From an uncultured Candidatus Saccharibacteria bacterium (lineage in GTDB: Bacteria; Patescibacteriota; Minisyncoccia; Minisyncoccales; CG1-02-41-26): a DNA stretch of 42,871 bases. The notes below the pieces were generated by a model. The model ran no database searches, was not told where the DNA came from, and saw nothing but the letters and a program-made list of their open reading frames with translations. The DNA lies in the NCBI GenBank assembly GCA_964450565.1, contig CAYVCP010000001.1, positions 15,073 through 57,943 of the forward strand. The letters run 5' to 3'. A program made the position numbers and the translations under genes. Of this stretch, positions 5,561 to 22,154 are shown piece by piece. Each line of letters starts with the position of its first letter. Position 1 is the stretch's first letter.

Positions 5561-6296
5561 TGACATTGGGGCTTCAACTAAAACTTTTAACCAGTATGGA
5601 AAAAAAGTTTTTTATATTAGTAATATTCCTGTCTTTTATTTTCCTTTAGCTAATTTCTGGTTTTTCAAAAAAGTGTGGCCCTTTAAAGGGTGGGGTCCTT
5701 ATAAGGAGCTGTTAAAAGAAGAATGGCTAAGCTATCTTGAGGTTTTTAAAGAATATCAAATAAAACCAATTATTGCTATTACTGCTTGTTGGTGCGAAAA
5801 AGATTCTTCTCTGACTCCTTTTTTTGAGAAGTTTCCTGAACAATCAAGTTTATTGAAAAAAGCCTTTTTAAACGATGATATTATAATTGCTAACCATGGT
5901 TTAAGTCATTGTGTTATTGGAAAGCATCTACCTTTGTTTTTTGGTTCTAATAGAAGGTATCATAGAGAGTTTTGGCCTTATCTCACGGAAAAGACACATT
6001 TTTTTCATATTTTAAAATCCCAAAAGATTTTAGAAGATTTTTTTGAAAAACAAATTGAAATTTTTGTTCCACCTGGTAATATATGGAGTCATAAAACATA
6101 TGAAGTATTAAAAAAAACTAATATAAAAAAGGTTATAGCCAATAGATATATGGCAGACTCAGAAGAGGATATGATAGGAATTGATTTTATCGATGACAGA
6201 GAGGATTTTGCCATAATGCACGATAGAGATTTAAAATTAAAGGGAGTAAAGTATCTTAAAAATGTACTCAAAAAATTTACAAAAAAAGATAATTGA
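5544..6296 (+). CDS. polysaccharide deacetylase-like (NodB/DUF2334-type) protein
   Basis: LRIDDIG (Asp-Asp motif) and ANHGLSHC (H-x3-H-like metal motif). Assignment is tentative. Confidence 0.35.
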   Translation: MILRIDDIGASTKTFNQYGKKVFYISNIPVFYFPLANFWFFKKVWPFKGWGPYKELLKEEWLSYLEVFKEYQIKPIIAITACWCEKDSSLTPFFEKFPEQSSLLKKAFLNDDIIIANHGLSHCVIGKHLPLFFGSNRRYHREFWPYLTEKTHFFHILKSQKILEDFFEKQIEIFVPPGNIWSHKTYEVLKKTNIKKVIANRYMADSEEDMIGIDFIDDREDFAIMHDRDLKLKGVKYLKNVLKKFTKKDN

Positions 6297-6984
6297 ATAT
6301 TATACCTCTTATTATAAGTCTTGTGGCTTGAAAGATTTTGAAGAAAGAGCGAAAGCAAGATTGAGAGAAGAAGATTTAGAACTAGAGAGAATGAAAAAAC
6401 TTGAAAAGATTTTACACAAAAACTTTACGAAAAAAAAGCATTTTATTTTTGGTGCAGGCACCGCAGGCTTAGCTGTCGTTTTAAAAGAACAATATGATGC
6501 TGATGTCTATGGTATAGAACCATCAACCGAAGAGTTTAATATTATTCAAATGAAATTAAAGGAAAGGGGTATTGCTCTTTCAAACTTTAGAAAGGAATAT
6601 GGAGAAAAACTATCCTTTTTTAATGAACAATTTGATTTTGTTCATTGTTTTACGGTCTTAGAGCATGTTACTAATGTAAGAAAATGTATTGAAGAAATGG
6701 TAAGAATTACAAAAAAAGGGGGGGTTATTTATATTAATACTCCTAATTATGCTTTTCCCGAAGAAAGACATTATAAAATTAGATTTCCTTTTCCACCAGC
6801 CTATATGCCGAGAATATTCTCTTATTTTTATCTAATGTTAAGACAAAGACCGTATAAGTTTTTAAGGAGCATTAACTTTTTAACCGAGAGAAAATTAGAG
6901 AAATATTTAAAAGAAGTAAAGGGGATTCAATGGGAAAGAATAGGAAAAAAGCATAATCAAGAAATAATAATTAAAAAACAATGA
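6262..6984 (+). CDS. class I SAM-dependent methyltransferase
   Basis: IFGAGTAGLAVVL (motif I), VYGIEPS, FDFVHCFTVLEHV, GGVIYINTPN. Confidence 0.65.
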   Translation: MYSKNLQKKIIEYYTSYYKSCGLKDFEERAKARLREEDLELERMKKLEKILHKNFTKKKHFIFGAGTAGLAVVLKEQYDADVYGIEPSTEEFNIIQMKLKERGIALSNFRKEYGEKLSFFNEQFDFVHCFTVLEHVTNVRKCIEEMVRITKKGGVIYINTPNYAFPEERHYKIRFPFPPAYMPRIFSYFYLMLRQRPYKFLRSINFLTERKLEKYLKEVKGIQWERIGKKHNQEIIIKKQ

Positions 6985-8195
6985 AAATAGCTTTTATAAT
7001 TTATAGAGACGCTTATTACAAGCATTTTGGACCTATTATCACAGAGGCCTTGAAAAGAAACCATGACATTTTTTGTTTACACGATTACTCACAATCAAAG
7101 GATGGATTAAAGGGATATCAATTTCCCAGTATTGAAAAAATGCCAAATTTTAAAGGTAACGTAAAAGCAATATCGTTTCTTAATAGAGATGATTTATTGA
7201 AAAAGATAAAAGAAAACAATATTGAAACTGTTATTTTACTAGAATTCTTAGAAGAACATATAGCCTTAAAAAAACAACTAAACATTTCTTTTGTTTCTTT
7301 ACAGTGCGTATATGACACTATGACTCATTACCAGTTCATAAAAGAAGCTGATAGGTATTTTTTCTATTCTGAAAATTGGTTTTCTATCATTCAAAAATAT
7401 TTAGAAGAAAAGAAGCAAATACTTGATAGAAAAAATATTAGATTTACTGGTAGTCCAGAGCTAGATCAAGTTTTTAAGATTGACAAACAAGAGATGAAAA
7501 AAAAGTTTAATATTCCTCAAGATCAAAAAGTAGTTTTATTGTTACCCTTTCCTTTTAAGGCTTCTTCTGATAGGTTTTGGGCTCCTATTATATATGGAAA
7601 GAGTAATTTTATCTTACAATTATTTATATCTATTTTTTCTTTTAAATTAAGATTTATCAAGCAAGTTATTAAAAGACAGAATGATAAAAAAGTCATAGAA
7701 AAAATTAGAGAATTTTGTGACAAAAATGATGCTTATCTTTTAGTTAAAGCAAGAAAAAAAGAGCCTGTTAGAAAGTATTTGAAAAAGTTAGCAGATCAAA
7801 TAATATACGACGAAAGCTATTATCCTGCTACTATTTTAGAGTGTATGAAAATGTCGGACATTTGTTTAAGCTTTTATTCTTCTGCTGTAATTGAGGCTAG
7901 TGCTTGTGCTGTTCCTAATCTATGTATTACTCCTTCAGGAAAAGACTATAAGAATTTAAAAACTGATATGTGGAAGGTTATACTTGAGTACCAAAAAGAA
8001 ATATTTAATTTCCATGGTGTTTCTTACAAAATGAGTATTCCAGAGATTATTAAAGATATGCCACTAAAGTCTTTCTCAGACTTTCCTGTAATTAATGAAA
8101 AAAGGAGAGAGTATCTTGAAAAATTTCTTCCTTTTTTAGGTAAATCTTCTGAGAAAATTCTTGATGAGATTGAAAATATGGCAAGAATAGTTTAA
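6981..8195 (+). CDS. hypothetical protein, possibly a GT-B/TagF-like transferase
   Basis: 404 aa ORF coupled by ATGA to the upstream gene. The C-terminal half (VVLLLPFPF..., LLVKARKKEP..., SFYSSAVIEASACAVP) loosely resembles CDP-glycerol glycerophosphotransferase-like or capsule transferases. No firm motif was found. Confidence 0.3.
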   Translation: MKIAFIIYRDAYYKHFGPIITEALKRNHDIFCLHDYSQSKDGLKGYQFPSIEKMPNFKGNVKAISFLNRDDLLKKIKENNIETVILLEFLEEHIALKKQLNISFVSLQCVYDTMTHYQFIKEADRYFFYSENWFSIIQKYLEEKKQILDRKNIRFTGSPELDQVFKIDKQEMKKKFNIPQDQKVVLLLPFPFKASSDRFWAPIIYGKSNFILQLFISIFSFKLRFIKQVIKRQNDKKVIEKIREFCDKNDAYLLVKARKKEPVRKYLKKLADQIIYDESYYPATILECMKMSDICLSFYSSAVIEASACAVPNLCITPSGKDYKNLKTDMWKVILEYQKEIFNFHGVSYKMSIPEIIKDMPLKSFSDFPVINEKRREYLEKFLPFLGKSSEKILDEIENMARIV

Positions 8196-8205
8196 AATTA
8201 AACAT

Positions 8206-9171
8206 ATGAGTTTAAAAAATAAAACAATTTTATTGACTGGGGGAGTTGGTTCTTTCGGAAAAAAGTTTGTTTCAATAGCTTTAAAAGAGCACGATCCTTA
8301 TTCTATTAGGGTATATGATATTAATGAATTAGGACTTGTGGAAATGAGAAGACATTTTAAAGACAAAAGATTAAGATTTCTTATTGGAGACGTAAGAGAT
8401 AAAAATAGATTGAAAAGAGCTATGAATAATGTTGATATTGTGGTGCATGCTGCTGCTTTAAAACATGTTGATATGTGTGAATATAATCCCATTGAAGCTG
8501 TTCGGACAAATATAGAAGGAGCAATGAATGTTGTTGACGCTGCTATTGATAATAATGTTGCAAAAGTAATTAATATCAGCACTGATAAAGCAGCTTACCC
8601 TGTTAATCTTTATGGAGCTAGTAAAATGGTAGCTGAAAAACTTTTTATTCAAGGAAATACTTACGTTTCTGCTAATAAAGAAACTATTTTTTCTTGCACT
8701 AGGTATGGAAATGTACTCGGATCTTCTGGTAGTGTAATTCCATTATTTCAAGAACAAAAGGAACAAGGAAAACTTAAGATTACAGACGAAAATATGACTA
8801 GATTTTGGCTTAAGATAGAGGATGGGGTAAATTTTGTTATAAAAAGTATTAATATGATGAAAGGAGGAGAGATTTTTATTCCCAAAATTAAAAGTATGAA
8901 AATTATGGATTTAGCCGAAGCTATAGCTCCTGGGGTAAAAAAAGAGATTATCGGAATAAGACCAGGTGAAAAAATACATGAAGTTTTGCTTACCAAGGAA
9001 GAGGCTAGACACTCAAAGGCTTATAAGGATTATTTTGTTGTTTGTCCAGAGTTTTCTTTTTGGAAGGATGAAAAAGACAGTGGCTGTCAATTAGACTCTT
9101 CTTTTGAGTATTCTAGCGATACCAACGAAGATAAACTAGTTAAAGAAGATTTAAAGAAAATAATAAATTAA
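8206..9171 (+). CDS. pseB: UDP-N-acetylglucosamine 4,6-dehydratase (inverting), PseB/FlaA1 family
   Basis: ILLTGGVGSFGKKF, IGDVRDKNRL, VVHAAALKHVDMCEYNPIEAVRTNIEG, ISTDKAAYPVNLYGASKMVAEKLF. This is the classic CapD/PseB short form. Confidence 0.85.
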   Translation: MSLKNKTILLTGGVGSFGKKFVSIALKEHDPYSIRVYDINELGLVEMRRHFKDKRLRFLIGDVRDKNRLKRAMNNVDIVVHAAALKHVDMCEYNPIEAVRTNIEGAMNVVDAAIDNNVAKVINISTDKAAYPVNLYGASKMVAEKLFIQGNTYVSANKETIFSCTRYGNVLGSSGSVIPLFQEQKEQGKLKITDENMTRFWLKIEDGVNFVIKSINMMKGGEIFIPKIKSMKIMDLAEAIAPGVKKEIIGIRPGEKIHEVLLTKEEARHSKAYKDYFVVCPEFSFWKDEKDSGCQLDSSFEYSSDTNEDKLVKEDLKKIIN

Positions 9172-10268
9172 TGAAAAAGATTATCCCTTATGGCAAGCAA
9201 TGGATTTCAGAAGAAGATATTAAAGAAGTTGTTAAGGTATTACATACAGATTGGTTAACTTGTGGACCAGAAGTTAAAAATTTTGAACAGAAGTTAGCTT
9301 CTTATTGTAAGGCAAAATATGCTGTTTGTGTTTCTTCTGGAACAGCAGCCCTACACTCAGCTTATTATGCTATTGGTTTAGGAAAAGGCGATGAGGTTAT
9401 CACAACACCTTTAACTTTTTCAGCAACATCAATGGCTCTAGCATATGTTGGAGCAAAACCAGTATTTTGTGATGTAAAAAAGGATACTTTAAACATAGAT
9501 CCGAAAGAAATTGAAAAATCAATTACCAAAAAAACAAAAGCGATTTCTATTGTGGATTTTGCAGGTCAGCCTTGTGATTTAGACGAAATAAAAAAGATAG
9601 CAAAAAAACATAATTTATTTGTCATTGAGGACGCTTCCCATGCTATTGGATCTGATTATAAGAAAAGAAAGGTGGGCGGTATAAGTGACTTAACAATTTT
9701 TTCTTTTCATCCTGTTAAAACAATATGTACTGGAGAAGGAGGGGCCATATTAACGAATAATAAAAAGTTTTATGAAAGAATGAAGATGTTTCGTCATCAT
9801 GGCATTATTAAAAAAGATAATTGGAAATATAGTGTGGTAGATATAGGTTATAACTATAGGATTACTGATATGCAATGCGCTCTTGGAATTTCACAATTAA
9901 AAAAGATTGATTTTTTTAAAAAAAGAAGAAGAGAGATTGTTGAAATGTATAGAGATTTATTAAAAAATGAAGATATTATTTTTATTAAGGAAAAAGAAAA
10001 TGTTAAATCTTGTTGGCATATTTATCCCATTCAGTTGAAAAATAGGAAAAAAGTATTTGAATTTTTAAGAAAAAAAGGTATTTTGGTTCAAGTTCACTAT
10101 GTTCCCTTGCATTTTCAACCCTTTTATCAAAAGAAGTTTAATTATAAAGTAGGAGATTTTCCTGTTGTAGAAGAGTATTATAAAAAAGCTTTAACCTTGC
10201 CTCTTTATCCTAAGATGAAAAATACAGATGTTGAAACAGTTGTAAAAACATTAAAACAAATTTTATGA
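9171..10268 (+). CDS. pseC: DegT/DnrJ/EryC1 aminotransferase, PseC-like (UDP-4-amino-4,6-dideoxy-N-acetyl-beta-L-altrosamine transaminase)
   Basis: IPYGKQWISEEDI..., SGTAALH, and the PLP-lysine region SFHPVKTICTGEGG. The start shares one base with the pseB stop (TAATG). Confidence 0.8.
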   Translation: MKKIIPYGKQWISEEDIKEVVKVLHTDWLTCGPEVKNFEQKLASYCKAKYAVCVSSGTAALHSAYYAIGLGKGDEVITTPLTFSATSMALAYVGAKPVFCDVKKDTLNIDPKEIEKSITKKTKAISIVDFAGQPCDLDEIKKIAKKHNLFVIEDASHAIGSDYKKRKVGGISDLTIFSFHPVKTICTGEGGAILTNNKKFYERMKMFRHHGIIKKDNWKYSVVDIGYNYRITDMQCALGISQLKKIDFFKKRRREIVEMYRDLLKNEDIIFIKEKENVKSCWHIYPIQLKNRKKVFEFLRKKGILVQVHYVPLHFQPFYQKKFNYKVGDFPVVEEYYKKALTLPLYPKMKNTDVETVVKTLKQIL

Positions 10269-10888
10269 GGACATTCCAAGAAGAAAATTGGACCTCAGAA
10301 CATGGCGACCAGTATAATACGAGAAATCCAAAAACTATAGAAGAAACAGATCAGCTTTATCTAAAGAACTATGATTTGAAAAGAAGTTCTTTAAATGAAG
10401 AGTTTTTGGGAGATCTAAAAAGAGATATCAAAATTCTTGAAGTTGGTTGTAATATGGGGGCCCAGTTAGACGGTTTAAAGAAAATGGGTTTTACAAATTT
10501 ATTTGGCATTGATGTTAATAGGGAATCTTTGAAGGTAGCTAAAAACAATTTTGATGCTATGTTTGGGTCTGCTCTAGATTTACCTTTTAAGGATAATTAT
10601 TTTGATTTAGTTTTTACCTCTGGAGTTTTAATTCATATTTCACCTAAAGATTTGAAACAAGTAACAGAGGAAATTGTGCGATGTTCTAAAAAATATATCT
10701 GGGGTTTTGAATATTTTTCAGATACAGCAAAAGAAATACCTTATAGAGGAAAGGAAAATTTGCTTTGGAAAAATAATTTTTCTAAATTTTATCTAAATAA
10801 CCATAATCTTGATCTTATAAAAGAAAAAAGAATTCAATACTTAAACGATAAAAATGAAGATGTAATGTTTCTTTTAAAAAAGAAATGA
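10265..10888 (+). CDS. SAM-dependent methyltransferase (pseudaminic acid biosynthesis-associated methylase type)
   Basis: ILEVGCNMGAQL (motif I), FGIDVN, FDLVFTSGVLIHI. Embedded between pseC and the cytidylyltransferase. Confidence 0.6.
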   Translation: MRTFQEENWTSEHGDQYNTRNPKTIEETDQLYLKNYDLKRSSLNEEFLGDLKRDIKILEVGCNMGAQLDGLKKMGFTNLFGIDVNRESLKVAKNNFDAMFGSALDLPFKDNYFDLVFTSGVLIHISPKDLKQVTEEIVRCSKKYIWGFEYFSDTAKEIPYRGKENLLWKNNFSKFYLNNHNLDLIKEKRIQYLNDKNEDVMFLLKKK

Positions 10889-11607
10889 TCTCAAGCATCA
10901 TACAAGCTCGTATTACGTCAACTAGATTGCCTAATAAGGTTTTGATGGACATAGAAGGAAAGCCCATGGTTTTAAGGGTTGTAGAGAGATTAAGAATGTC
11001 TAAAATGATAGATCTGCTTATTTTAGCTATTCCGGATACAAAAGAAAATGATATTTTAGAAAGTTTTTGTAAAACAAATAAAATAAAATACTTTAGGTCA
11101 TCTGAAGAAGATGTTTTAAAAAGATATTATTTAACAGCAAAACACTATAATGTTGATACAATAGTACGCATAACCTCTGACTGTCCTTTTATAGATCCTG
11201 TTATTACAGATAAAATTATCAAAGAGCATATTAAAAGTAAGACAGACTATACTTCTAATGTTATTAAGAGAACTTTTCCGCGCGGTTTTGATACCGAAGT
11301 TTTTTCTTTTTTTGCTTTAGAAAAATCTTATAATAAAACAAAAGAAAAATATCAAAGAGAACATGTCACCCCTTATTTCTTTGAAAATCCAAATATTTTC
11401 AGTCTCCACAATGTCGTTTATAAGAAAGATTACTCTGATATAAGATTAACAGTAGATACCAAAGAAGATATGGAATTAGCCAGAAAGATTTATAACCACT
11501 TTAAAGATAAGATGTTTTTTTTAGAAGATATTATTTTATATTTGCGTCAAAAACCTGATTTTTCTATCATAAATAAAGGTATAAGACAAAAAGATTTAAA
11601 AGCGTGA
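10885..11607 (+). CDS. SpsF/FlmC-type cytidylyltransferase (likely the CMP-nonulosonate synthetase of this cluster)
   Basis: N-terminus IIQARITSTRLPNKVLMDIEGKPMV and ITSDCPFIDP match the COG1861/NeuA-like nucleotidyltransferase pattern. Confidence 0.65.
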   Translation: MISSIIQARITSTRLPNKVLMDIEGKPMVLRVVERLRMSKMIDLLILAIPDTKENDILESFCKTNKIKYFRSSEEDVLKRYYLTAKHYNVDTIVRITSDCPFIDPVITDKIIKEHIKSKTDYTSNVIKRTFPRGFDTEVFSFFALEKSYNKTKEKYQREHVTPYFFENPNIFSLHNVVYKKDYSDIRLTVDTKEDMELARKIYNHFKDKMFFLEDIILYLRQKPDFSIINKGIRQKDLKA

Positions 11608-12167
11608 GTTTTTTTAAAAATAAAGTTGTTTTTTGTCGGCATGGGAAAACAGATTGGAATAAAGAAAAAAGGACAATGGGAAATATTGATATACCATTAT
11701 CTAAAGAGGGTATTTTACAAGCCCAAGAAACAGCAGAAAATTTAAGTAACTGTAGTTTTGATCTTATAATTGCTTCACCCAAAAAAAGATGTATCCAAAC
11801 AGCAGGTATTATAGCAAAGAGATTAAATATTCAAGAAATCATAACACAAGATAATTTTACAGAAAGAAATTTAGGTGTTTTACAAGGGTTAACAAACTTA
11901 GAAGCAAAAAATAAATACCCTTTTCTTTTTAAAGAAGGAAAATTTGATTATAATAGTATTGTCCCTAAAGGAGAAAGTGTGAGAGATTTTATTGCAAGAA
12001 TAAAGGGGGGGATAGAAGAGGGAAGACCATTATTTGATTCAAAAAAAGTTCTTGTTATAACGCACCATGGTGTTTTAACAGCCGTTTTTTCTATTATAAA
12101 AAACATGGATTTTAATGAAGTTGCGCAAAAATATACTTTTTCATATGCAGAAATAATTGAAATTTAG
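11604..12167 (+). CDS. histidine phosphatase family protein (phosphoglycerate mutase-like)
   Basis: RHG catalytic motif (VVFCRHGKTDWN) and a downstream THHGV histidine. The GTG start at 11604 overlaps the upstream TGA. Confidence 0.7.
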   Translation: MSFFKNKVVFCRHGKTDWNKEKRTMGNIDIPLSKEGILQAQETAENLSNCSFDLIIASPKKRCIQTAGIIAKRLNIQEIITQDNFTERNLGVLQGLTNLEAKNKYPFLFKEGKFDYNSIVPKGESVRDFIARIKGGIEEGRPLFDSKKVLVITHHGVLTAVFSIIKNMDFNEVAQKYTFSYAEIIEI

Positions 12168-12211
12168 CTTTTTTCTTTACTAATTAATCAAAAAAGAGTA
12201 ATAATATATAC

Positions 12212-12649
12212 ATGATGTTATCTTTAAGAAAAGCAAATATTAAAGACGCAGAATTTCTTTTTGAATTAAGGAATAATCCTGATATCTTTAAATATTATAG
12301 AAATCCAGTAAAAGTAGTATGGAATGAACATATCAGCTGGTTAAAATCTGTTGTTTTAGGAGAAACAAATAAAGATCTTTATATTATAGAACTTGATGGA
12401 AAAAGAGCAGGGCAAATAAGGTTTGATACCGAGGGAGACAAAAAGGAATTGAGTATTTCTCTACAAAAAGATTTTCAAGGACAGGGATTAGGATCTAAAT
12501 CGTTAAAAAAAGCAATAGAGATGGAGAAATCAGTGATACTAATAGCTGAAATTCATAAAGAGAACATTGCTTCTATTAAACTATTTGAGAAATTTAATTT
12601 TAAACTTCAAAAAAATAAAGGTAATTTTAATATTTATGAAAGAATTTAA
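12212..12649 (+). CDS. pseH: GNAT N-acetyltransferase, PseH-like
   Basis: LRKANIKDAEFLFELRNNPDI... and the QGQGLGSK acetyl-CoA loop. The size (145 aa) and the position directly before pseI also fit. Confidence 0.6.
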   Translation: MMLSLRKANIKDAEFLFELRNNPDIFKYYRNPVKVVWNEHISWLKSVVLGETNKDLYIIELDGKRAGQIRFDTEGDKKELSISLQKDFQGQGLGSKSLKKAIEMEKSVILIAEIHKENIASIKLFEKFNFKLQKNKGNFNIYERI

Positions 12650-13688
12650 AATAGGCAATAAAAAAATAGGAGCAGATAATCCTGTCTTCATTACAGTAGA
12701 TATTTCAGCTAATCACTTAGGAGATAAAGAAAGAGCAAAAGAGCTTGTAAAAAAAGCTTGTGAATGTGGTGTTGATGCAGTAAAAATACAGACTTATACT
12801 CCCTCAACAATGACTTTGAATTCAGAAAAGGATCCTTTTCAGGTAAAGGTAAATGATGCTTGGAAAGATAGAACTCTTTATAATCTTTATGAAGAAGCTT
12901 TTACCCCTTGGGAATGGCACAAAGAATTAGAGGAAGTTTCTCTGTCTTTTAATATTCCATTATTCTCAACAGCCTATGATGATTCTTCTGTTGATTACTT
13001 GGAAAAAATGAATACTCCTTGTTATAAAATAGCTTCTTTTGAGGTTACAGATTTAGAACTTTTAAAAAAAGTAGCTATGACAAAAAAGCCAGTTATTATC
13101 TCAAGAGGTTTATCTAATTTGAAAGAATTAGAATTAGCCCTAAAAACTTTGAAAGAATCGGGCGTAGAAGACATCGTCTTACTTCATTGTATAAGTTCTT
13201 ATCCTAGTAAAATAGAAGAAGCAAACTTAAAAACAGTAGCAGATATTGAAAAAAGATTTAATGTTATACCTGGATTATCAGATCACTCTCTAACGACATG
13301 TTTGCCCGTAGCTGCAGTTGCCTTAGGGGCAAAGGTTATTGAAAAACACTTTACCTTGCAAAGGTCTGATGGGGGAGTAGATGCTAACTTTTCTTTAGAA
13401 CCCGAAGAATTAAAGAGAATGATAAAAGAAATTAGAGAAGTAGAAAAAGCATTAGGCAAGGTTTCTTATGAAGTTGGTCAATATGAAATAGAAAATAAAC
13501 AATTCAGAAGATCTCTTTGGGTTATTAAACCAATAAAAAAAGGAGAGATACTTACTAAAGAAAATATTGGAAGATTTAGACCAGAATCAGGGCTTCCTAT
13601 TAGGTGTTTGAAAGAAGTTCTAAATAAAAGAGCAAAAACAGATATTAGTTTTGCAACTCCTTTAAGTTGGGATTTAATAGAAAAATGA
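12636..13688 (+). CDS. pseI: pseudaminic acid synthase (NeuB family, PseI)
   Basis: MKEFKIGNKKIGADNPVFITVDISANHLG..., KIASFEVTDLELL, LHCISSYPS, GLSDHS, and a C-terminal SAF domain. I place the start at ATG 12636 rather than the 12567 ORF-track start, whose extension overlaps pseH. Confidence 0.8.
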   Translation: MKEFKIGNKKIGADNPVFITVDISANHLGDKERAKELVKKACECGVDAVKIQTYTPSTMTLNSEKDPFQVKVNDAWKDRTLYNLYEEAFTPWEWHKELEEVSLSFNIPLFSTAYDDSSVDYLEKMNTPCYKIASFEVTDLELLKKVAMTKKPVIISRGLSNLKELELALKTLKESGVEDIVLLHCISSYPSKIEEANLKTVADIEKRFNVIPGLSDHSLTTCLPVAAVALGAKVIEKHFTLQRSDGGVDANFSLEPEELKRMIKEIREVEKALGKVSYEVGQYEIENKQFRRSLWVIKPIKKGEILTKENIGRFRPESGLPIRCLKEVLNKRAKTDISFATPLSWDLIEK

Positions 13689-14353
13689 AAAAATATATAG
13701 TTTGTGGATACACGCCATGGTCAAAAAAGGTTTTTGATCAAAAAATATCTAAATATAATGGAAATTGGTTTTTGTTTTCTAAGAAAAGCGACCTAACATT
13801 ATCTAGAATTAAAAAGATAGATCCAGTTTTTATCTTTTTTCTTCACTGGTCTTGGATTGTTCCAAAAGAGATAGTTGATAACTATAATTGTGTTTGTTTT
13901 CATATGACAGATGTTCCTTATGGAAGAGGAGGAAGTCCTTTGCAAAATTTGATTGTTAGAGGACATAAGACAACAAAATTAACAGCTCTAAAAATGGATC
14001 AAGGGATGGATACTGGTCCTGTTTATTTAAAAAGGCAAATGCCTTTAGATGGTAAGGCTTCAGAAATTTATGAAAGAGCTTATCTTTTGTCATCTGAAAT
14101 GATAAAAAATGTTATTAAGGGCATTAAGCCAAAACCTCAAACAGGGAAAAGCACTGTTTTCAAGCGAAGGAAGCCAGAACAAAGTGAGATTACGGCAGAA
14201 AAAATAAGTGATGTTTATGATTACATTAGAATGTTAGATGCTGAAGGATACCCCTTGGCCTTTGTCAAAAAAGACGGTTTTTTATATGAGTTTTTTGATG
14301 CTACATTAGAGAAAAAAGAAGTTATAGCAAAGGTTAGGATAAAAAAAATATGA
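13685..14353 (+). CDS. formyltransferase-domain protein (Fmt N-terminal-like)
   Basis: HMTDVPYGRGGSPLQNLI matches the formyl_trans_N active-site block (H...P.GRG..P). ATGA overlap with the pseI stop; start taken at 13685. Confidence 0.65.
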   Translation: MKKYIVCGYTPWSKKVFDQKISKYNGNWFLFSKKSDLTLSRIKKIDPVFIFFLHWSWIVPKEIVDNYNCVCFHMTDVPYGRGGSPLQNLIVRGHKTTKLTALKMDQGMDTGPVYLKRQMPLDGKASEIYERAYLLSSEMIKNVIKGIKPKPQTGKSTVFKRRKPEQSEITAEKISDVYDYIRMLDAEGYPLAFVKKDGFLYEFFDATLEKKEVIAKVRIKKI

Positions 14354-15831
14354 AAGTTTTAATTGTTGTTTCTCATCCCGATGATGAGGTTTTGGGTTGT
14401 GGAGGAATAATTTTAAAGCATATTTCCAAGGGAGATCAAGTTTATATTTTAATTTTAAGCGATGGAGAAACTTCAAGGGATCAAGGGGTTGATTTGGTAA
14501 AAAGAGAAAGTAACGCAAGGAAAGTAGCGGACATGTTAGGGGTGACTCATCTTTATTTAGAGAAATTACCAGACAATCAATGCGATGCTATCCCATTATT
14601 GAATGTGGTCAAAATAGTAGAAGGAGTGGTCAAAAAAGTTCAACCATCAATTGTTTATACTCATAATTCTTACGATTTAAATATAGACCATCAAATTGCT
14701 TTCAGGGCTGTTTTAACAGCTTGTAGGCCCCAGCCCAATTTTTTCGTTAAAAGAATTTTAGCTTTTGAGGTTCTTTCTTCTACTGAATGGCAGACGAAAG
14801 AGAGAAGCACTTTGTTTTGTCCCACCGTATACGAAGACATTACAGATTTTATTGATAAAAAAATAGAAGTTTTAAAAATCTATCAGGACGAATTAAGAGA
14901 GTATCCTCATCCAAGAAGTATAGAGGGAGTAAGAGTTTTGGCAAAATATAGGGGTATTGAATCTGGTTATAGATTTGCCGAAGCGTTTCAATTAATAAGG
15001 GAGTTAAAAGATTATGCATCAATGAAAGTTGATGGCAAAAAAATAGCTACATCAATTATTGAAGATTTAAAAAGTAAGTTTAAAGAGAATAAAGCTGTTT
15101 TGGTTCTTATTGCCATTAATCCTGATAAAGCTATCCTTTCTTTTATTGAGCAAAAAAAGAAAACAGCCCAAAGGGTAGGGGTAGAATTGAGGATTAAAGA
15201 ATTAGATCAAAATATTACCCAACAAGAAGTTTTTTCTTTACTTAAAGAAATTGGGCAAGACAAGGAGGTTGATGGCATTATTGTTCAGCTTCCCTTACCA
15301 AATCATTTGAATGAACAGGATATTTTGGACGCTATCCCGAAAGAAAAAGACGTTGATGCTTTAGGAAAAAATGCAGAAAATCTTGCCTTGTCTGTAGAAA
15401 CTGTAAAATATATTTTTAATAAATACGAGATTGATATGGATCATAAGGTAATTGTTTTGAACGGATTTGGAAAATTAGTTGGCATGCCTCTATATCATTG
15501 GTTTTGTTCTTTGGGTTTAAAAGAGAACGTAATAGTTATTAAAGAGGATACTTGTAATAAAAAAGATTTAATTAAAAAAGCAGATATTTTAATCTCAGGA
15601 GTTGGTAAAGCCAATTTGATACCATCTTACTGGTTGAAAAAAGGAGTTATTATTATTGATTTTGGTTGTGAGGTCAAACAAGGAAGAATATTTGGAGATG
15701 TGGAAAAAACAGTAAAGGAAAAAGCGAGAATTTTTACTCCGACACCAGGAGGTACAGGGCCCATCTTAGTTGCTTTAATTTTTAGAAATTTATATTCTCT
15801 CAAAAAAGCCAATGATAAAATACGGTCTTAA
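14350..15831 (+). CDS. fusion protein: N-terminal PIG-L/LmbE-type sugar N-deacetylase plus C-terminal FolD-like methylene-THF dehydrogenase/cyclohydrolase domain
   Basis: N-terminal VVSHPDDEVLGCGG and DLNIDHQ (PIG-L motifs). From the in-frame ATG at 15022: MKVDGKKIA..., VDGIIVQLPLP, KDVDA, TPTPGGTGPILVA (FolD motifs). There is no stop codon between the domains. Confidence 0.7.
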   Translation: MKVLIVVSHPDDEVLGCGGIILKHISKGDQVYILILSDGETSRDQGVDLVKRESNARKVADMLGVTHLYLEKLPDNQCDAIPLLNVVKIVEGVVKKVQPSIVYTHNSYDLNIDHQIAFRAVLTACRPQPNFFVKRILAFEVLSSTEWQTKERSTLFCPTVYEDITDFIDKKIEVLKIYQDELREYPHPRSIEGVRVLAKYRGIESGYRFAEAFQLIRELKDYASMKVDGKKIATSIIEDLKSKFKENKAVLVLIAINPDKAILSFIEQKKKTAQRVGVELRIKELDQNITQQEVFSLLKEIGQDKEVDGIIVQLPLPNHLNEQDILDAIPKEKDVDALGKNAENLALSVETVKYIFNKYEIDMDHKVIVLNGFGKLVGMPLYHWFCSLGLKENVIVIKEDTCNKKDLIKKADILISGVGKANLIPSYWLKKGVIIIDFGCEVKQGRIFGDVEKTVKEKARIFTPTPGGTGPILVALIFRNLYSLKKANDKIRS

Positions 15832-16558
15832 ACTATGGAGCAAAAACAAAGAATGGTTTCCTAAAGCCATTTCTCTTTATAATGAAGGAATTATTGATTT
15901 TATAGAGCTTTTTATTGTACCCAATACTTTAAGAGAAGTAGAGATTTTAAAAGAAGTTCCTATCGTAATACATGCACCTCATTTTACGTTTGGTTTTAAC
16001 ATTTCTAATCTTACTGAAGATAGTTTATCTATTTTTAAAGAGCAAGTAATAAAAACAGCAGATTTTTTTAATTCAGAATATATTATTGTGCACGCTGGAG
16101 TAGGTAAAGAACAAGAAGTTTTCCAAGAGAACGTTGCGAAACTTCAAGATAAGAGGATTTTAATTGAAAATATGCCGAGAAGAGGTTTTGTTGCTTCTGA
16201 TGGGGATTTGTGTTTTGGGAGTACTGTAGATGATTTAGAATTTATTAAAAAAGAATGTGGCTTAGATATTTGTTTTGATTTCTCCCACGCTTGTTCATCT
16301 GCTTTTTCTCAAGGATTAGACTATAAAGAGTATATTTCTACCCTATTAGAAAAGTTAAATCCTTTCTATTTTCATATTTCAGGTAACGAGAAAGAAACAG
16401 AGCAAGATAAACATATGAATTTATATGAAAGTGCTATTGATATTAAATGGATGAAAGAGAAAATAAAAGATAAAGATATTTTTCTAGTTGTTGAAACTCC
16501 CAAAAAGGATGGTTTAAAAAATGATCAAAAGAATATAATGTATTTGAGAAACCTTTAG
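15812..16558 (+). CDS. xylose isomerase-like TIM-barrel (sugar phosphate isomerase/epimerase, AP_endonuc_2) protein
   Basis: Pattern IELF..., HAPHF..., IIVHAG..., LIENM..., FDFSHA... is typical of this TIM-barrel family. Confidence 0.45.
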   Translation: MIKYGLKLWSKNKEWFPKAISLYNEGIIDFIELFIVPNTLREVEILKEVPIVIHAPHFTFGFNISNLTEDSLSIFKEQVIKTADFFNSEYIIVHAGVGKEQEVFQENVAKLQDKRILIENMPRRGFVASDGDLCFGSTVDDLEFIKKECGLDICFDFSHACSSAFSQGLDYKEYISTLLEKLNPFYFHISGNEKETEQDKHMNLYESAIDIKWMKEKIKDKDIFLVVETPKKDGLKNDQKNIMYLRNL

Positions 16559-16564
16559 AGATAA

Positions 16565-17808
16565 TTACATTTTTTTAAAAAAGAATAATTGCAAGAAAAA
16601 AGTGATAACTTCAAGAATTAAAAATGCTAAGATAGCTCCCCATATTCCCAAAAAGGGAATTAACAAGAGAAGTAATATAATATATATAGGAGAAAGTATA
16701 AAAGCGCCTAAGTAGAGTTGTTTTGTTTTCATCTTTGCTGTCAAAGAAGTACCCAATAATGTTCTTGGGAAGGTTAAAAGAATAAGGATATATACTTGGG
16801 AGAAAGAAACAAACTCTTTATATGCTGGAAAAAGTATTTTATATAAAAAAGGAGCCAAAAGAATATAAGAAATTATAATTGGCACTGTGATAAAAAATAT
16901 TTGTCGCATTTTTTGAGGCACTGTTTCTTTTAATTCTTGTTCACTTTTTTCTGCGTATTTGGGCAATGCAAGACTACTTACTATTTTTAAAATTTCTTTT
17001 ATTTTTATGGGCAAGGATAGTGCAATAAAATAAATAGCTACATAATCTGCTCCTAAAAAGTGCCATATAATTATTTTATCCAAATGGGAATTTACTAAAC
17101 TGAAAGAGCCTATTAAGCTTAAGTGTTTTCCGTAAGAGATTGTTTTACTGTCTTCTTGTGTGTTAATGTCACATTTTTTCTTTGTAAGAATTAAAAATAA
17201 TAAGTGTAGAAAAGACCAGATAAAAAAATAACTAAAAATAATAAGATAAAGGTTCTTTGTTAAAATTACAACCAAACTAACCGTTAAGGCAGAAACGATA
17301 TAAACAAAACTTTTTATTTTATTCTGTATGTCAAACCTTTTTTTACCTTGCCAAAAAAAGTTATATAAAGAAAAAGAATTTAGCAAAGGAATAAAAGCTG
17401 AAATTAAGACAAAACTTAAAGCTAAAGTATTATTGCCTTGCAAGAAATAATATATAGCTATTATTATTGATCCCGCTATTCCTAATGATCCCCATTTCAA
17501 TTTTGTTTTTAATGCTTTTTGAAACGATCCTTCCTTTTTCCTTGAGACAGCTTGCAAAAAAGCAATATCCATACCAGACAAAGAAGGGATAGCAAGAATT
17601 CCAGCTACGCTTAATATGTATCTATATGCTCCCAAGAGTTCTTTGGTGGCAAAGTTAGCAAAACAAGAGTAAGTAAAAGTCCCGACACAGCAGTTGCTAT
17701 TTGTCCGCAAGCTAACCAAAAACCTCCTTTAGTTAGGTAAACCATGTCCGTTTTGGTATATTTTTCTGATTTTTTTAATCCCTTGTAAATTTTATTTTTT
17801 AAAGCCAT
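16565..17808 (-). pseudogene. wzx: Wzx-type polysaccharide flippase (MOP superfamily) interrupted by a 1-nt frameshift
   Basis: Two overlapping minus-strand ORFs (17611-17808 and 16565-17719) together give a normal Wzx: ...KGGFWLACGQIATAVSGLLLTLVL | ANFATKELLGAYRYILSV... The frames switch at the GTTTTG run (plus-strand AAAA at 17660-17663). The total span of 1244 nt is one base short of a multiple of three. Confidence 0.7.
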
Positions 17809-17831
17809 AATATAATATATTATCCTAATTT

Positions 17832-18578
17832 ATGCTAAATGAAAACCCTAAAGTTTCAGTTTTAATGGCTGTTTATAATTCAGCAAAATATCTGAAGCCG
17901 TCTATAGAAAGTATATTAAATCAAACATTTATTGATTTTGAATTTATTATCATTGACGATTGTTCTAGTGATAACTCTTTATCTCTTTTGGAAAGCTATC
18001 AAGACAAAAGAATTAAAATTATTAAAAATGTTAAAAATCAGGGTTTAACTAAAAATCTTAATAAAGGTTTAAAAATAGCAAGGGGGGATTATGTCGCTCG
18101 TATGGATGATGATGACATTTCTTCTTTAGATAGATTAGAAAAACAGTATAATTTTATGGAACGAAATAAAGAAGTTTTTTTATGTGGATCCTTAGGTTAT
18201 GTTATTGATGAAAATGGAAAAAGGATAGGAGAAAAAAATTTAGAAATAAAGAATATCAAAAAGAGACTTTTATTCAATAATCAATTTATCCATTCTTCTT
18301 TGTTTTTTAAAAGGGGAGTGTTTTATGACGAGTCTTTTGAAAGAGCTCAAGATTATGAATTTGTTTTAAGAATTGCTTCAAAATATAAAGTAGCCAATCT
18401 AGAAGAGAGATTAGTAGAATGGAGGAAAAGAAAAACCTCTCTATCCTTTTCTTCAAAAAAGCAAAAGAAATGTGCTATTAAAGCAAGATGGCTTGCTATA
18501 ACAAAATATGGTTATCCTAAAATAGAAGGATTTTTCCACATCTTGCTTCGTATTGGACAGTTAATTTTCTCTAATTAA
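17832..18578 (+). CDS. family 2 glycosyltransferase
   Basis: VSVLMAVYNSAKYL..., FEFIIIDDCSSDNS, ARMDDDD (DxD). This is a canonical GT2 N-terminal domain. Confidence 0.85.
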   Translation: MLNENPKVSVLMAVYNSAKYLKPSIESILNQTFIDFEFIIIDDCSSDNSLSLLESYQDKRIKIIKNVKNQGLTKNLNKGLKIARGDYVARMDDDDISSLDRLEKQYNFMERNKEVFLCGSLGYVIDENGKRIGEKNLEIKNIKKRLLFNNQFIHSSLFFKRGVFYDESFERAQDYEFVLRIASKYKVANLEERLVEWRKRKTSLSFSSKKQKKCAIKARWLAITKYGYPKIEGFFHILLRIGQLIFSN

Positions 18579-19931: not shown

Positions 19932-20291
19932 ATGCCTATGTCCATACAAGTATTTGTTAATGAATTTAAAAATAAAAAAATGAATTCAAAGAAGATAGAA
20001 AAAGAAATAACGAAGTTAATGCAGGATGAAGATGTAACAAAAGAATCTGGCATTTACCCATATGTTTTGACTAGACAAGAAAAATATCTAAATATTCGAG
20101 TATTTACCGATAAAATGAAACGAGAAGCATATGAGAGGCAAAAAGGTATTTGCCCAAGATGTAAGGAACGTTTTGAAATAGAAGAAATGGAAGCAGATCA
20201 TATAAAGCCTTGGCACGAAGGTGGAAAAACAATAGATAAAAATTGTCAAATGTTATGCAAAGAGTGTAATAGAAGAAAATCTGGAAAATAA
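19932..20291 (+). CDS. small stand-alone HNH endonuclease-domain protein
   Basis: C-terminal CPRCKERFEIEEMEADHIKPWHEGGKTIDKNCQMLCKECNRRK, i.e. CxxC...DH...N...CxxCN HNH. The start could be ATG 19932, 19938 or 19980. Confidence 0.7.
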   Translation: MPMSIQVFVNEFKNKKMNSKKIEKEITKLMQDEDVTKESGIYPYVLTRQEKYLNIRVFTDKMKREAYERQKGICPRCKERFEIEEMEADHIKPWHEGGKTIDKNCQMLCKECNRRKSGK

Positions 20292-20323
20292 AACTTAAAA
20301 GATTATTGGTAGAATTTAAGTTG

Positions 20324-20364
20324 TGTAAAGATACCTGTCAATTTGCTTGACAGGTATCTTTACA
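20324..20364 (+). terminator. perfect 18-bp inverted repeat (5-nt loop); candidate intrinsic terminator of the HNH gene and/or operator
   Basis: TGTAAAGATACCTGTCAA (20324-20341), loop TTTGC, TTGACAGGTATCTTTACA (20347-20364). Followed by only a short TTT run. Confidence 0.45.
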
Positions 20365-20375
20365 TTTGCTACGAT
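20347..20375 (+). promoter_or_regulatory. candidate sigma-70-type promoter for the XRE/Panacea operon
   Basis: TTGACA (20347-20352), a 17-nt spacer, then TACGAT (20370-20375). The -35 lies inside the right arm of the palindrome. Confidence 0.4.
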
Positions 20376-20443
20376 AGAAACGTGGCTAATAATTTTGAAA
20401 AAATAACGTGGGATATGTTAGAAAAATTATATAAAAAATAATT

Positions 20444-21220
20444 ATGATTACATTTTTAAAAAAACTTCGCCAAGAAAACGATGTGAGCCAAGGATTTTTG
20501 GCAAAAAAAATAGGTGTATCCCGTCCGACTTATGCGCAGATTGAAAGCGGTGCGCGAGACATATCTGTAAAAGAAGCGCAAAAATTAGCCCGATTTTTTG
20601 GATTGTCTTTAGAAAATTTTCTTGCTGGTAAAAAAACACCGGAGTCAAAAGTAGAATTGGAGAAAACAAAAAAGAAAAAAATACAAAAAATTGAACCTCG
20701 TGATTCAGTACCTCAGGAAAAAGTAGAAAAATTCAAAGAAGTACTTTTGTATATTTTGGAAAAAATAGGTGCGCGTCCAAATGTCGGCGAAGCTGTCGTG
20801 TGTAAATTAATGTATTTTATTGACTTTGATTATTATGAAAAATTTGAGGAACAATTAATTGGGGCTAAATATATAAAAAATCATTTTGGACCAACCCCTG
20901 TTGCTTTTCCTGAGATTATTGCGCAAATGGAACAAAATGGTGATTTGACACGTGTTACAAAAAAATATTTTCAACACGATCAAAAAAAATATTTACCACG
21001 CAGATTTGCCGACCTTTCGAATTTTTCAGCTAGAGAAAAAGAATTAATTGATTGGGAAATTGAACGATTTAAGGAGTTTAACGCTACAAAGATGCGTAAT
21101 TATTCACACAAAGATGTTCCGTGGATTGGTGCTGACGATCTACAACCGATTAACTATGAAGCGGTTTTTTCTCGTACCGATGAATTTTCCGTAAGACAAT
21201 ACGATGATGAACTATTATGA
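20444..21220 (+). CDS. XRE-family HTH protein fused to a Panacea (DUF4065/SocA-like) domain; putative PanA-type antitoxin
   Basis: N-terminal LRQENDVSQGFLAKKIGVSRPTYAQIESGARDISVKEAQKLARFFG (HTH_3). C-terminal VVCKLMYFIDFDYYEKFEEQLIGAKYIKNHFGPTPVAFPEII resembles DUF4065. Confidence 0.65.
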   Translation: MITFLKKLRQENDVSQGFLAKKIGVSRPTYAQIESGARDISVKEAQKLARFFGLSLENFLAGKKTPESKVELEKTKKKKIQKIEPRDSVPQEKVEKFKEVLLYILEKIGARPNVGEAVVCKLMYFIDFDYYEKFEEQLIGAKYIKNHFGPTPVAFPEIIAQMEQNGDLTRVTKKYFQHDQKKYLPRRFADLSNFSAREKELIDWEIERFKEFNATKMRNYSHKDVPWIGADDLQPINYEAVFSRTDEFSVRQYDDELL

Positions 21221-21569
21221 AACAGAAGAATTTACACGTGATTTTAAAAAACTGCTGAAGAAATTTTCATCATTGGCGGAAGACTTAGAAGTGAACAAGC
21301 AATATCGGATTGAGCTTTTTCATTGTAAGGGGATAGATAGTAAGGGTATTATTGAAATTCAAGGAGTTGGCAATACAACGGAGCTTAAATTTTTTAAAGT
21401 TAAAAAATTTCAATGTAAAGACTTAAAAGGTCGTGGAGCAAAAAGTGGCATTCGTGTTATTTATGCTTATTTTCCTGTTGAACAAAAAATAGTGTTTATA
21501 GAAATATATTTTAAAGCAAATCAAAACAACGAGAACAAACAAAGAATTATTAATTTTATAAATACATAA
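21204..21569 (+). CDS. RelE/ParE-superfamily (HigB/Gp49-like) toxin candidate
   Basis: 121 aa. The C-terminal core GIRVIYAYFPVEQKIVFIEIYFKANQ is typical of RelE/ParE-fold toxins. Overlaps the upstream antitoxin-like gene by 17 nt. Confidence 0.55.
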   Translation: MMNYYETEEFTRDFKKLLKKFSSLAEDLEVNKQYRIELFHCKGIDSKGIIEIQGVGNTTELKFFKVKKFQCKDLKGRGAKSGIRVIYAYFPVEQKIVFIEIYFKANQNNENKQRIINFINT

Positions 21570-21572
21570 TTT

Positions 21573-22154
21573 ATGAATATAGAATACGAAGCAACATTTT
21601 TAAACATTAATAAAGATGTTATACGGGAGAAGTTGAAAAACATTAATGCTAAATTAGTTAAAGCTGAATATTTACAAAAGCGAGTTGTTTTTAATTTACC
21701 AAAAAATATAGATGGAGCACATAAATGGGTTAGAGTAAGAGATGAGGGGGATAAAATTACGATGAGTTTGAAAGATGTCGATGCTGGAAAAATAGAAAAC
21801 CAAAAAGAGGTTTGTTTAAGGGTGGGCGATTTCAAGAACGCTGTGGATCTATTAGAATTAAGTGGGTTTCATAAAAAAGCGTATCAGGAGAATAAGAGAG
21901 AAAAATGGCTATGTGATGAGTGCGAGATAGATATTGACGAATGGCCATTTTTAGAACCATATATAGAAATTGAGTCAACAAGTGAGCAGTTAGTAAAAGA
22001 TATGGCTCAAAAATTAGGATTTGATTACTCTAAAGCATTGTTCTGTTCTACAACCACTATTTATGCTAAAAAATATAATATATCGGATGATATTATAAAC
22101 AACCAAACACCAAAAATAATTTTCAATATGGAAAATCCGTTTTTGAGAAGATAA
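21573..22154 (+). CDS. CYTH-domain protein (class IV adenylyl cyclase / triphosphate tunnel metalloenzyme family)
   Basis: N-terminal IEYEATF (ExExK-like), WVRVRDEGDKITMSLKD, ENQKEVCLRV, REKWLCDECEIDIDEWPFLEPYIEIES. This follows the CYTH beta-strand pattern. The start is 4 nt after the toxin stop. Confidence 0.55.
   Translation: MNIEYEATFLNINKDVIREKLKNINAKLVKAEYLQKRVVFNLPKNIDGAHKWVRVRDEGDKITMSLKDVDAGKIENQKEVCLRVGDFKNAVDLLELSGFHKKAYQENKREKWLCDECEIDIDEWPFLEPYIEIESTSEQLVKDMAQKLGFDYSKALFCSTTTIYAKKYNISDDIINNQTPKIIFNMENPFLRR

Follow-up and report, generated by a model that had tools for sequence, protein, structure and literature searches.

A PIG-L deacetylase::FolD fusion in a pseudaminic acid operon of a Candidate Phyla Radiation bacterium and its possible link to sugar N-formylation

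Introduction

Why should a folate enzyme be fused to a sugar deacetylase within an operon for the synthesis of pseudaminic acid (Pse)? The question is raised by a stretch of 42,871 nucleotides from an uncultured bacterium deposited as Candidatus Saccharibacteria (GenBank assembly GCA_964450565.1, contig CAYVCP010000001.1, positions 15,073 to 57,943; hereafter the window, whose own numbering is used throughout), in which one reading frame joins a PIG-L/LmbE-type amidase to FolD and is preceded by a formyltransferase-like gene and by pseI. Flagella, pili, capsules and S-layers are decorated with nonulosonic acids such as Pse, and how the immune system and phages recognise these sugars depends on their N-acyl groups. 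To our knowledge, few routes have been described by which acyl groups other than acetyl reach N5 of these sugars. An earlier reading of the sequence alone (hereafter the original prediction) had proposed that formyltransferase and fusion constitute a self-contained module for sugar de-N-acetylation and N-formylation, with the supply of the formyl donor physically attached to the deacetylase.

The fusion protein and its authenticity

The fusion is encoded by an open reading frame (ORF) at 14350..15831 on the plus strand, stop codon included, whose product of 493 amino acids (aa) has no internal stop. The original prediction had read this frame as running without interruption from PIG-L into FolD across the in-frame ATG at 15022, and every motif quoted was found: VVSHPDDEVLGCGG at residues 6–19 in the PIG-L half, MKVDGKKIA opening at Met225 (the ATG at 15022), and VDGIIVQLPLP and TPTPGGTGP in the FolD half. 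The domain search proposed with it placed all three Pfam domains above their gathering cut-offs, namely PIG-L at residues 4–124 (84.4 bits, cut-off 28.2), THF_DHG_CYH at residues 228–336 (95.8 bits) and THF_DHG_CYH_C at residues 351–486 (94.6 bits), so that the C-terminal half matches FolD profiles. The protein consists of a complete PIG-L/LmbE amidase (residues 1–220, 14350..15009) bearing the metal and catalytic motifs H9-P-D-D12-E and D113-H114, a linker of four residues, D-Y-A-S (15010..15021; D-P-T-C in the orthologue described below), and a complete FolD (residues 225–493, 15022..15828) bearing K269, Q313, KDVD at 333–336 and PGGTGP at 466–471, all on the plus strand.

A second assembly record, contig k141_622484 of the European Nucleotide Archive (5.5 kb), which may share reads with the window contig, matches window positions 12107-17612 with 99.93% identity over 5,506 bp and encodes an identical 493-aa fusion protein in an intact ORF. 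The two records differ by four single-nucleotide polymorphisms; the three that fall in scored plus-strand genes, one of them in the FolD half, are all synonymous, and the fourth lies in an unscored minus-strand ORF. An orthologue, P0002 (MBM4177375.1, 509 aa, named 'PIG-L family deacetylase [Candidatus Gribaldobacteria bacterium]' by NCBI), is 60–61% identical over its full length and has the same three Pfam domains. Contigs carrying it came from Logan SRR7979709 and from JGI 3300020109; they are identical in DNA over the 2.7 kb that they share, and on both of them the gene order PseI, formyltransferase-like, fusion is that of the window. The junction aligns without a gap (...AFQLIRELKD-YAS-MKVDGKK in the window, ...AFQLIRELKD-PTC-LIVDGNQ in P0002). 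Retention of the ORF in the second record, despite the four differences, and in an orthologue found in two further assembly records effectively refutes the notion that a missed stop codon or an indel, arising in sequencing or assembly, merged separate PIG-L and folD genes; such an error now has a negligible probability and was rejected.

HMMER searches of every sequence among 1.84 billion cluster representatives returned P0002 (657 bits) as the sole protein spanning both halves, the runner-up being a single-domain FolD (245 bits), and the architecture amounts to one 50%-identity cluster in that collection. It was recovered in two proteins only, P0001 and P0002, by a word-indexed search of 5.8 billion clusters, on the P0002 contig only by a scan of JGI metagenomes, and in none of the 185,579 species-representative genomes scanned. 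A widespread architecture was rejected, as the scans of representatives, genomes and metagenomes gave no further fusion. The view that no such fusion had been described thus held up: the only named member of the single cluster is listed by NCBI simply as a 'PIG-L family deacetylase'. The FolD halves of the two fusions are 55% identical to each other and at most 47.5% identical to any other FolD; being mutually closest, they fit a single fusion event. The fusion is genuine, lineage-restricted and essentially unique.

Its likely origin can be read from the junction. The stand-alone PIG-L relatives (n=124) terminate at the equivalents of fusion residues 220–223, and stand-alone FolDs of the Candidate Phyla Radiation (CPR) start with MI(I/V)DGKK. 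A head-to-tail join of a whole PIG-L, four linker residues and a FolD at its original start is what loss of the stop codon between adjacent genes would give. As part of the explanation favoured below, and with the same reserve of somewhat less than even confidence, the stop lost would be that between a PIG-L gene of a nonulosonic acid cluster and a folD directly 3' of it. Separate translation of FolD from an internal start is neither supported nor excluded by the sequence: P0002 has Leu (TTG) at the position of Met225, and an AAGGGAG 18 nt 5' of the ATG at 15022, which lies within the conserved LIRE codons and is not found in P0002, is too distant for a normal Shine-Dalgarno site. A scan for promoters and terminators gave no usable signal, with 48 promoter-like sites where 41.7±5.5 were expected.

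The PIG-L half and its family

Of the 56 columns with conservation of 80% or more among its stand-alone relatives, the PIG-L half retains 54 (median of the stand-alones, 53). Residues H9-P10-D11-D12 and D113-H114, conserved in the 124 stand-alones, fall in alignments on the metal and catalytic positions of solved deacetylases; homologues in the PDB are diacetylchitobiose deacetylase, TT1542 and BshB, and scores to solved members are only 22–46 bits. In this subfamily, whose hallmark motif is DLNIDH, Asn always takes the place of the first His of the usual HPDH. With its catalytic motifs intact, the domain looks functional and is predicted to be a de-N-acetylase.

Proteins of this family, which is very large, measure about 225 aa. 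A census was made of 40 loci of at least 8 kb carrying it, homologues being counted within about 10 kb. NeuB/PseI was present in 35 of the 40, PseC in 32 and PseB in 23, and a formyltransferase-like gene, mostly directly adjacent to PIG-L, in 15; FolD was present in none, nor was an unfused PIG-L followed by folD found in these 40 loci. Fusion partners of PIG-L among the matches listed in the word-indexed protein search were most often GNAT acetyltransferases (22 matches, annotated as PseH in Helicobacter and Campylobacter upsaliensis), followed by Formyl_trans_N (4; P0020, P0034, P0043 and P0064) and NeuB/PseI (3), with one match each for Formyl_trans_C_2 plus GNAT (P0027, 622 aa, with 38 sequences in its cluster), a methyltransferase, a DegT aminotransferase and a cytidylyltransferase.

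Almost the same gene set as in the window is found in a cultured gammaproteobacterium, Pseudoalteromonas lipolytica CGMCC 1.8499, whose flagellin glycosylation island contains PseB, PseC, a SpsF-like cytidylyltransferase, PseG::GNAT, a formyltransferase-like protein (47% identical), PseI, PIG-L (48%), GNAT and Maf; the PseG::GNAT of the Pseudoalteromonas cluster in the comparison set (L011) scores 256 bits to PseG. The subfamily recurs in nonulosonic acid clusters across phyla (CPR, Campylobacter, Helicobacter, Pseudoalteromonas, cyanobacteria), often paired or fused with a formyltransferase-like protein, and it appears from these gene contexts to be an unrecognised regular component of the Pse and legionaminic acid (Leg) pathways. 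Comparative evidence that PIG-L acts in the Pse pathway, and that it acts together with a formyltransferase, is strong.

A separate observation concerns the Patescibacteria metagenome-assembled genome GCA_035290245.1 (L006:3731-11268 and L007:968-8505), which encodes a PIG-L::GNAT fusion with a PIG-L 58% identical to that of the window. The fusion is followed by genes for a phosphopantetheinyl transferase, an AMP-binding enzyme, a mannitol-dehydrogenase-like and an inositol-phosphatase-like protein, and a B12-binding radical SAM enzyme and an Antibiotic_NAT gene belong to the same run. Such a gene set suggests that an unusual N-acyl group may be put on a nonulosonic acid after deacetylation.

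The formyltransferase-like gene

The gene upstream of the fusion (ATG at 13685, 13685..14353, plus strand) encodes 222 aa and includes HMTDVPYGRGGSPLQN; no other formyltransferase-like gene was detected where the window was annotated. Its product scores 69 bits to PF21553 (Formyl_trans_C_2; cut-off 27) and matches PDB entry 1ZGH over residues 17–219 (E=1.1e-62, 214.6 bits), with which it shares the motif FHMTD(L/V)P(F/Y)GRGGSPLQN. The two belong to one family; 1ZGH is a structural-genomics entry from Clostridium thermocellum, and its name, 'methionyl-tRNA formyltransferase', is an automatic annotation. Scores to characterised sugar formyltransferases in the PDB were at most 32 bits each, those to tRNA Fmt entries reached about 40 bits, and the formyltransferase domain of ArnA gave a weak 43 bits. 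Conservation in the family is 90% or higher for His73, the P-x-x-R-G segment and the Asp of DTG (Asp109), all of which line up with Fmt.

The FolD half and the usual position of folD

The FolD half (269 residues; 263–280 in stand-alone CPR FolDs) retains 56 of 60 conserved columns, against 52 in P0002 and a median of 56 (minimum 47) in the stand-alones. Its mean identity to 92 stand-alones is 39.9%; these are 43.1% identical among themselves, with individual means from 35.5 to 48.8%, and identity to solved FolDs is 35–40%. The catalytic residues are kept: K269 (the Lys of YxxxK), Q313 (VQLPLP), D334 and D336 (KDVD) and PGGTGP at 466–471. The Tyr of YxxxK is replaced by Phe, as it is in the consensus of stand-alone CPR FolDs and in the representatives inspected, and further departures from a textbook FolD comprise GFGKLVGMP, TPTPGGTGP, the acidic segment KEDT and a PCTP loop of reduced length. 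Since most of these are common to the stand-alone CPR FolDs, they are lineage traits rather than signs of decay or specialisation, and a degenerate or specialised FolD half was rejected on the grounds that its conservation equals that of the stand-alones. The cut-off of the NCBIfam FolD equivalog was not reached (best 154.5 bits against 355), a shortfall that may reflect lineage divergence rather than lost function, as stand-alone CPR FolDs are of the same sequence type. The half looks functional, and activity as a methylenetetrahydrofolate dehydrogenase/cyclohydrolase is predicted.

Two further features of this FolD group were observed. Fusion residues 389–404 (window 15514-15560) carry the acidic pattern (E/D)-K-x-T, shared with the closest stand-alone CPR FolDs, where NADP-dependent FolDs have H-S/R-x-T; this suggests that the subgroup may use NAD+ rather than NADP+. 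A tandem FolD-FolD protein of 588 aa (P0007) was also found.

Related stand-alone FolDs are mostly encoded close to glyA, the gene for serine hydroxymethyltransferase. A 5' fragment next to the FolD of P0004 (47% identical) corresponds to the C-terminus of that enzyme, glyA lies directly 5' of the FolD of P0038 (46%), and in reference genomes of Saccharibacteria and Parcubacteria it lies 1–2.5 kb 5' of folD; two other related stand-alones are in unrelated contexts. Neither glyA nor a second folD was found in the window. One more FolD fusion was identified, a FolD::GT4 glycosyltransferase of 636 aa (P0090, L030:10001-11911; GCA_030689595.1, JAUYHP010000031.1), with glyA directly 5' and more glycosyltransferases 3'; no formyltransferase is encoded in 20 kb of sequence there.

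The operon and its surroundings

The fusion lies within one tightly packed run of plus-strand genes. The run opens with pseB, encoding an inverting UDP-GlcNAc 4,6-dehydratase (8206..9171; TIGR03589, 451.6 bits, cut-off 407.75), followed by the pseC aminotransferase gene (9171..10268; TIGR03588, 477.9 bits, cut-off 423.5) and by a gene for a methylase associated with Pse biosynthesis (10265..10888; TIGR03587, 154 bits, cut-off 112). Next comes a CTP_transf_3 (SpsF-like) cytidylyltransferase, presumed to be the CMP-Pse synthetase (10885..11607; PF02348, 125.8 bits), which scores 26.8 bits to the PseF model (cut-off 205.7) and has homologues in 15 of the 40 PIG-L loci. A protein of the histidine-phosphatase superfamily (11604..12167; PF00300, 138 bits), with no homologue in any comparison locus, precedes a weakly PseH-like GNAT N-acetyltransferase (12212..12649; PF13302, 50.3 bits) that gives 44.3 bits to the PseH model TIGR03585, below its cut-off of 93.1. 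The Pse synthase gene pseI (12636..13688, its start corrected to the ATG at 12636) reaches 443.6 bits to TIGR03586 (cut-off 340), so that the PseB, PseC and PseI equivalogs all exceed their NCBIfam cut-offs. As originally described, pseI, the formyltransferase-like gene and the fusion are coupled by ATGA overlaps, both read in the sequence (13685-13688 and 14350-14353). The 3' end of the fusion is overlapped by 20 nt by a gene for a xylose-isomerase-like TIM-barrel protein (AP_endonuc_2, 15812..16558; PF01261, 41.3 bits), all of these genes being on the plus strand; it is not kept next to P0002, whose 3' neighbour is a DUF6580 gene. No match to the UDP-sugar hydrolase PseG was found among the ORFs from 183 to 18578 scanned against NCBIfam, and UDP may here be released in another way.

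The operon is flanked by genes for glycosyltransferases, a GDP-mannose dehydratase, methyltransferases, a Bac_transf initiating transferase and a Wzy_C protein. Directly 5' of pseB, a 404-aa ORF (window 6981-8195) has no Pfam match and gives 30 bits to a BFO_1060-family glycosyltransferase domain (cut-off 200); its product is a candidate for the transferase using the modified CMP-Pse. Within the glycan locus, between the Bac_transf and Wzy_C genes, positions 19932-22154 hold an HNH endonuclease, a helix-turn-helix plus SocA/Panacea antitoxin-like protein, a 121-aa ORF and a CYTH-domain protein, which may form a small mobile or toxin-antitoxin island.

SecA homologues, the nearest at 70%, placed the organism in the Patescibacteria (CPR), of Parcubacteria type; the G+C content of the window is 30%. 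The contig of the nearest relative by SecA (L115, 70%) stops just 5' of murB, the glycan region lying outside it. Two other parts of the window can be compared with this contig. Between secA and secD lie a gene for a DpnII-like restriction endonuclease and, next to it, a 378-aa ORF without a Pfam match (28876-30901, minus strand); as secD directly follows secA in L115, they look like an inserted cassette of restriction-modification type. A homologue of TrwB/VirD4-like coupling proteins with a treble-clef zinc finger (35668-37347), located among housekeeping genes (sigma-factor-like, phosphoglycerate kinase), holds the same position in L115 and is thus a stable core component rather than a recent insertion.

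Discussion

The architecture of the fusion, its authenticity and rarity, the intactness of both halves and the association of PIG-L with formyltransferases are established. How these elements might act together we infer, including the substrate, the nitrogen concerned, the order of steps and any benefit from channelling. PseB, PseC and the GNAT would build a 2,4-diacetamido precursor of Pse, the GNAT acetylating the 4-amino group (N7). The PIG-L domain, a zinc amidase, would strip the acetyl from the nitrogen that comes with UDP-GlcNAc and ends up as N5 of Pse, and the translationally coupled 1ZGH-type enzyme would formylate the freed amine from N10-formyltetrahydrofolate (N10-formyl-THF). FolD would convert 5,10-methylene-THF into this donor, acting as dehydrogenase and then as cyclohydrolase, so that production of the donor and the step that frees the acceptor would share both expression and location. 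A genuine fusion with two intact halves, serving an acetyl-to-formyl exchange on a Pse intermediate with a donor made by FolD, is the best explanation we can offer, although we hold it with a little less than even confidence. The exchange itself, with FolD making the donor, is plausible and partly supported; that the fused FolD is a dedicated cofactor supply is unproven. Going further, to regard the fusion as a selected, self-sufficient formylation unit that makes the donor where and when the acceptor amine arises, and hence to predict 5-N-formyl-Pse, is rather unlikely to be right.

The position and persistence of the fusion speak for a functional tie: folD has left its usual place near glyA and lies one gene away from a formyltransferase-like gene, and the fusion has persisted across about 40% protein divergence, the latter being weak evidence as fusions are hard to undo. 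Several observations weigh on the other side. Only two sequences among about 15 billion proteins have this architecture; none of the 40 PIG-L loci, including the 15 with a formyltransferase, carries FolD, which indicates that the PIG-L/formyltransferase pair normally runs on the general formyl-THF pool; the FolD half displays no specialisation relative to stand-alone CPR FolDs; and its partner in the fusion is the deacetylase and not the presumed consumer of its product. The FolD::GT4 protein P0090 illustrates, moreover, that FolD can merge with an unrelated downstream neighbour in compact genomes. Apart from the choice of fusion partner, these facts also feed a neutral account, somewhat doubtful, in which a single housekeeping folD was rearranged to the 3' side of the Pse operon, fused by stop loss and has since served all needs of the cell, neither fusion nor location having been selected for sugar formylation. 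The window holds no second folD or glyA, duplicate genes are uncommon in small CPR genomes, and the FolD of the fusion may be the only copy in a genome of roughly 1 Mb, serving the formylation of fMet-tRNA too. What a neutral merger leaves to coincidence is the departure from glyA and a landing one gene from the formyltransferase-like gene, for which the chance would be well under 1% for roughly 1,000 genes (a post hoc estimate), besides the retention, itself a weak argument, of arrangement and fusion across the divergence mentioned. The neutral and dedicated readings are compatible, since in both of them FolD would feed the neighbouring enzyme, and they differ only in selection. Of the module originally predicted, the link between deacetylase and formyltransferase is supported, by the 15 of 40 loci, the PIG-L::formyltransferase fusions and a preprint on Candidatus Kuenenia stuttgartiensis discussed below, whereas the dedicated cofactor supply that would make it self-contained is not, in view of the 40 loci without FolD, the ordinary character of this CPR FolD, the location of its kin near glyA and P0090.

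The chemistry, too, can be read in other ways. The formyltransferase could act on the 4-amino group (N7), like PseJ, while PIG-L frees the N5 amine or allows its re-acylation by a GNAT, in which event there would be no acetyl-to-formyl exchange at a single nitrogen. The CMP-linked sugar of Kuenenia has one free amine and one formyl group; PseJ is cited as completing the pathway to Pse5Ac7Fo, its target reportedly being the 4-amino group; GNAT is the commonest fusion partner of PIG-L (22 among the matches listed), 25 of the 40 PIG-L loci lack any formyltransferase, and the PIG-L::GNAT of L006 adjoins acyl-activating genes. We nonetheless judge this arrangement distinctly unlikely, given that a separate PseH-like GNAT in the window accounts for N7, that three enzymes and two nitrogens are most simply reconciled if the formyltransferase acts on the amine freed by PIG-L, and that the latter two are usually directly adjacent or fused. 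Formylation of the PIG-L-freed amine is the most economical reading, as it leaves none of the three tailoring enzymes idle. It counts against it that 5-N-formyl-Pse ('Pse5Fo') is absent from the searchable literature and that the functions ascribed to the PIG-L family and to 1ZGH-type formyltransferases rest on sequence. A further objection is that the match of the formyltransferase-like protein to Formyl_trans_N (PF00551) falls below the cut-off (25.8 against 26.1 bits) and covers profile positions 73–159 only, that the canonical catalytic Asn is replaced, by Cys71 here and by Val in 1ZGH, and that 1ZGH itself is an uncharacterised structural-genomics entry. Were the protein no formyltransferase, FolD would have no chemical tie to the Pse pathway. 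That is improbable, because the family conserves His73, P-x-x-R-G and Asp109 in register with Fmt and because canonical Formyl_trans_N domains, with or without the C-terminal domain, are fused to the same PIG-L family in P0034 and P0064.

The main value of the fusion would be as a hint to the function of the large group of PIG-L plus formyltransferase-like pairs in nonulosonic acid clusters, since it is the only direct sequence-level pointer tying that pair to formyl-THF chemistry. If the dedicated reading is true, the fusion is a Rosetta-stone link assigning N10-formyl-THF-dependent acetyl-to-formyl exchange at N5 to PIG-L with its 1ZGH-type partner, a combination widespread in Pse and Leg clusters that would thereby gain a testable role, and cofactor supply would have been wired into a glycan pathway in the reduced genome of a minimal-genome symbiont. 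If it is accidental, it is a curiosity showing how neighbours merge in compact CPR genomes.

Comparison with known systems

MshB, BshB, diacetylchitobiose deacetylase and TT1542 are de-N-acetylases of GlcNAc-type amides. They have the fold family and metal motif (HPDD...DH) in common with the PIG-L half; unlike them, the subfamily of the window is tied to clusters containing NeuB/PseI. No paper tying PIG-L or LmbE to Pse was found in the searchable literature, one match to 'LmbE' proving false (an accession prefix).

Formylated nonulosonic acids are known. One of them, 5-N-formyl-legionaminic acid, is a product of Halorubrum sp. PV6, whose gene cluster contains a putative formyltransferase. 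The original prediction had invoked N-formylated Pse of the Pse5Ac7Fo type; the analogy is imperfect, as that sugar is reportedly made without a deacetylase, whereas the deacetylase of the window implies a change at N5. In the work of Reimer et al. (ACS Chem Biol 2018), PseJ reportedly formylates the 4-amino group in place of PseH, with no need for a deacetylase. Like the step proposed here, this is an N10-formyl-THF-dependent formylation within the Pse pathway; the window differs in having a formyltransferase-like protein of the 1ZGH family alongside both a GNAT and a PIG-L. The sugar Pse5Ac7Fo occurs naturally, and the formyltransferase that completes its pathway is PseJ (as cited in PMC11040635). 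For Candidatus Kuenenia stuttgartiensis, the SugarBase preprint describes CMP-nonulosonic acids with one free and one formylated amine and points, by gene context only, to a Leg-type cluster with a deacetylase and a formyltransferase (bioRxiv 10.64898/2026.04.20.719630). That cluster resembles the window in combining the two enzymes within a nonulosonic acid cluster, both changes preceding sugar transfer; it differs in being of Leg rather than Pse type and in that FolD is not involved, and the text does not name the enzyme families.

Fused enzymes offer the remaining parallels. ArnA formylates UDP-Ara4N from N10-formyl-THF, and the product is then deformylated by ArnD. As proposed here, a fused enzyme (in ArnA, formyltransferase::UDP-GlcA dehydrogenase/decarboxylase) combines with N-formylation and an amidase step; unlike the window fusion, the partner in ArnA is a sugar dehydrogenase and not a folate enzyme, and formylation is a transient protection rather than the final decoration. 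The FolD::GT4 protein P0090 likewise joins FolD to another enzyme, but that enzyme is a glycosyltransferase and nothing nearby points to formyl chemistry, so that this fusion looks accidental. Eukaryotic MTHFD1 (C1-THF synthase) combines FolD with formyl-THF synthetase, a partner that also handles 10-formyl-THF. There FolD is fused to another folate enzyme, whereas in the window it is fused to a sugar amidase.

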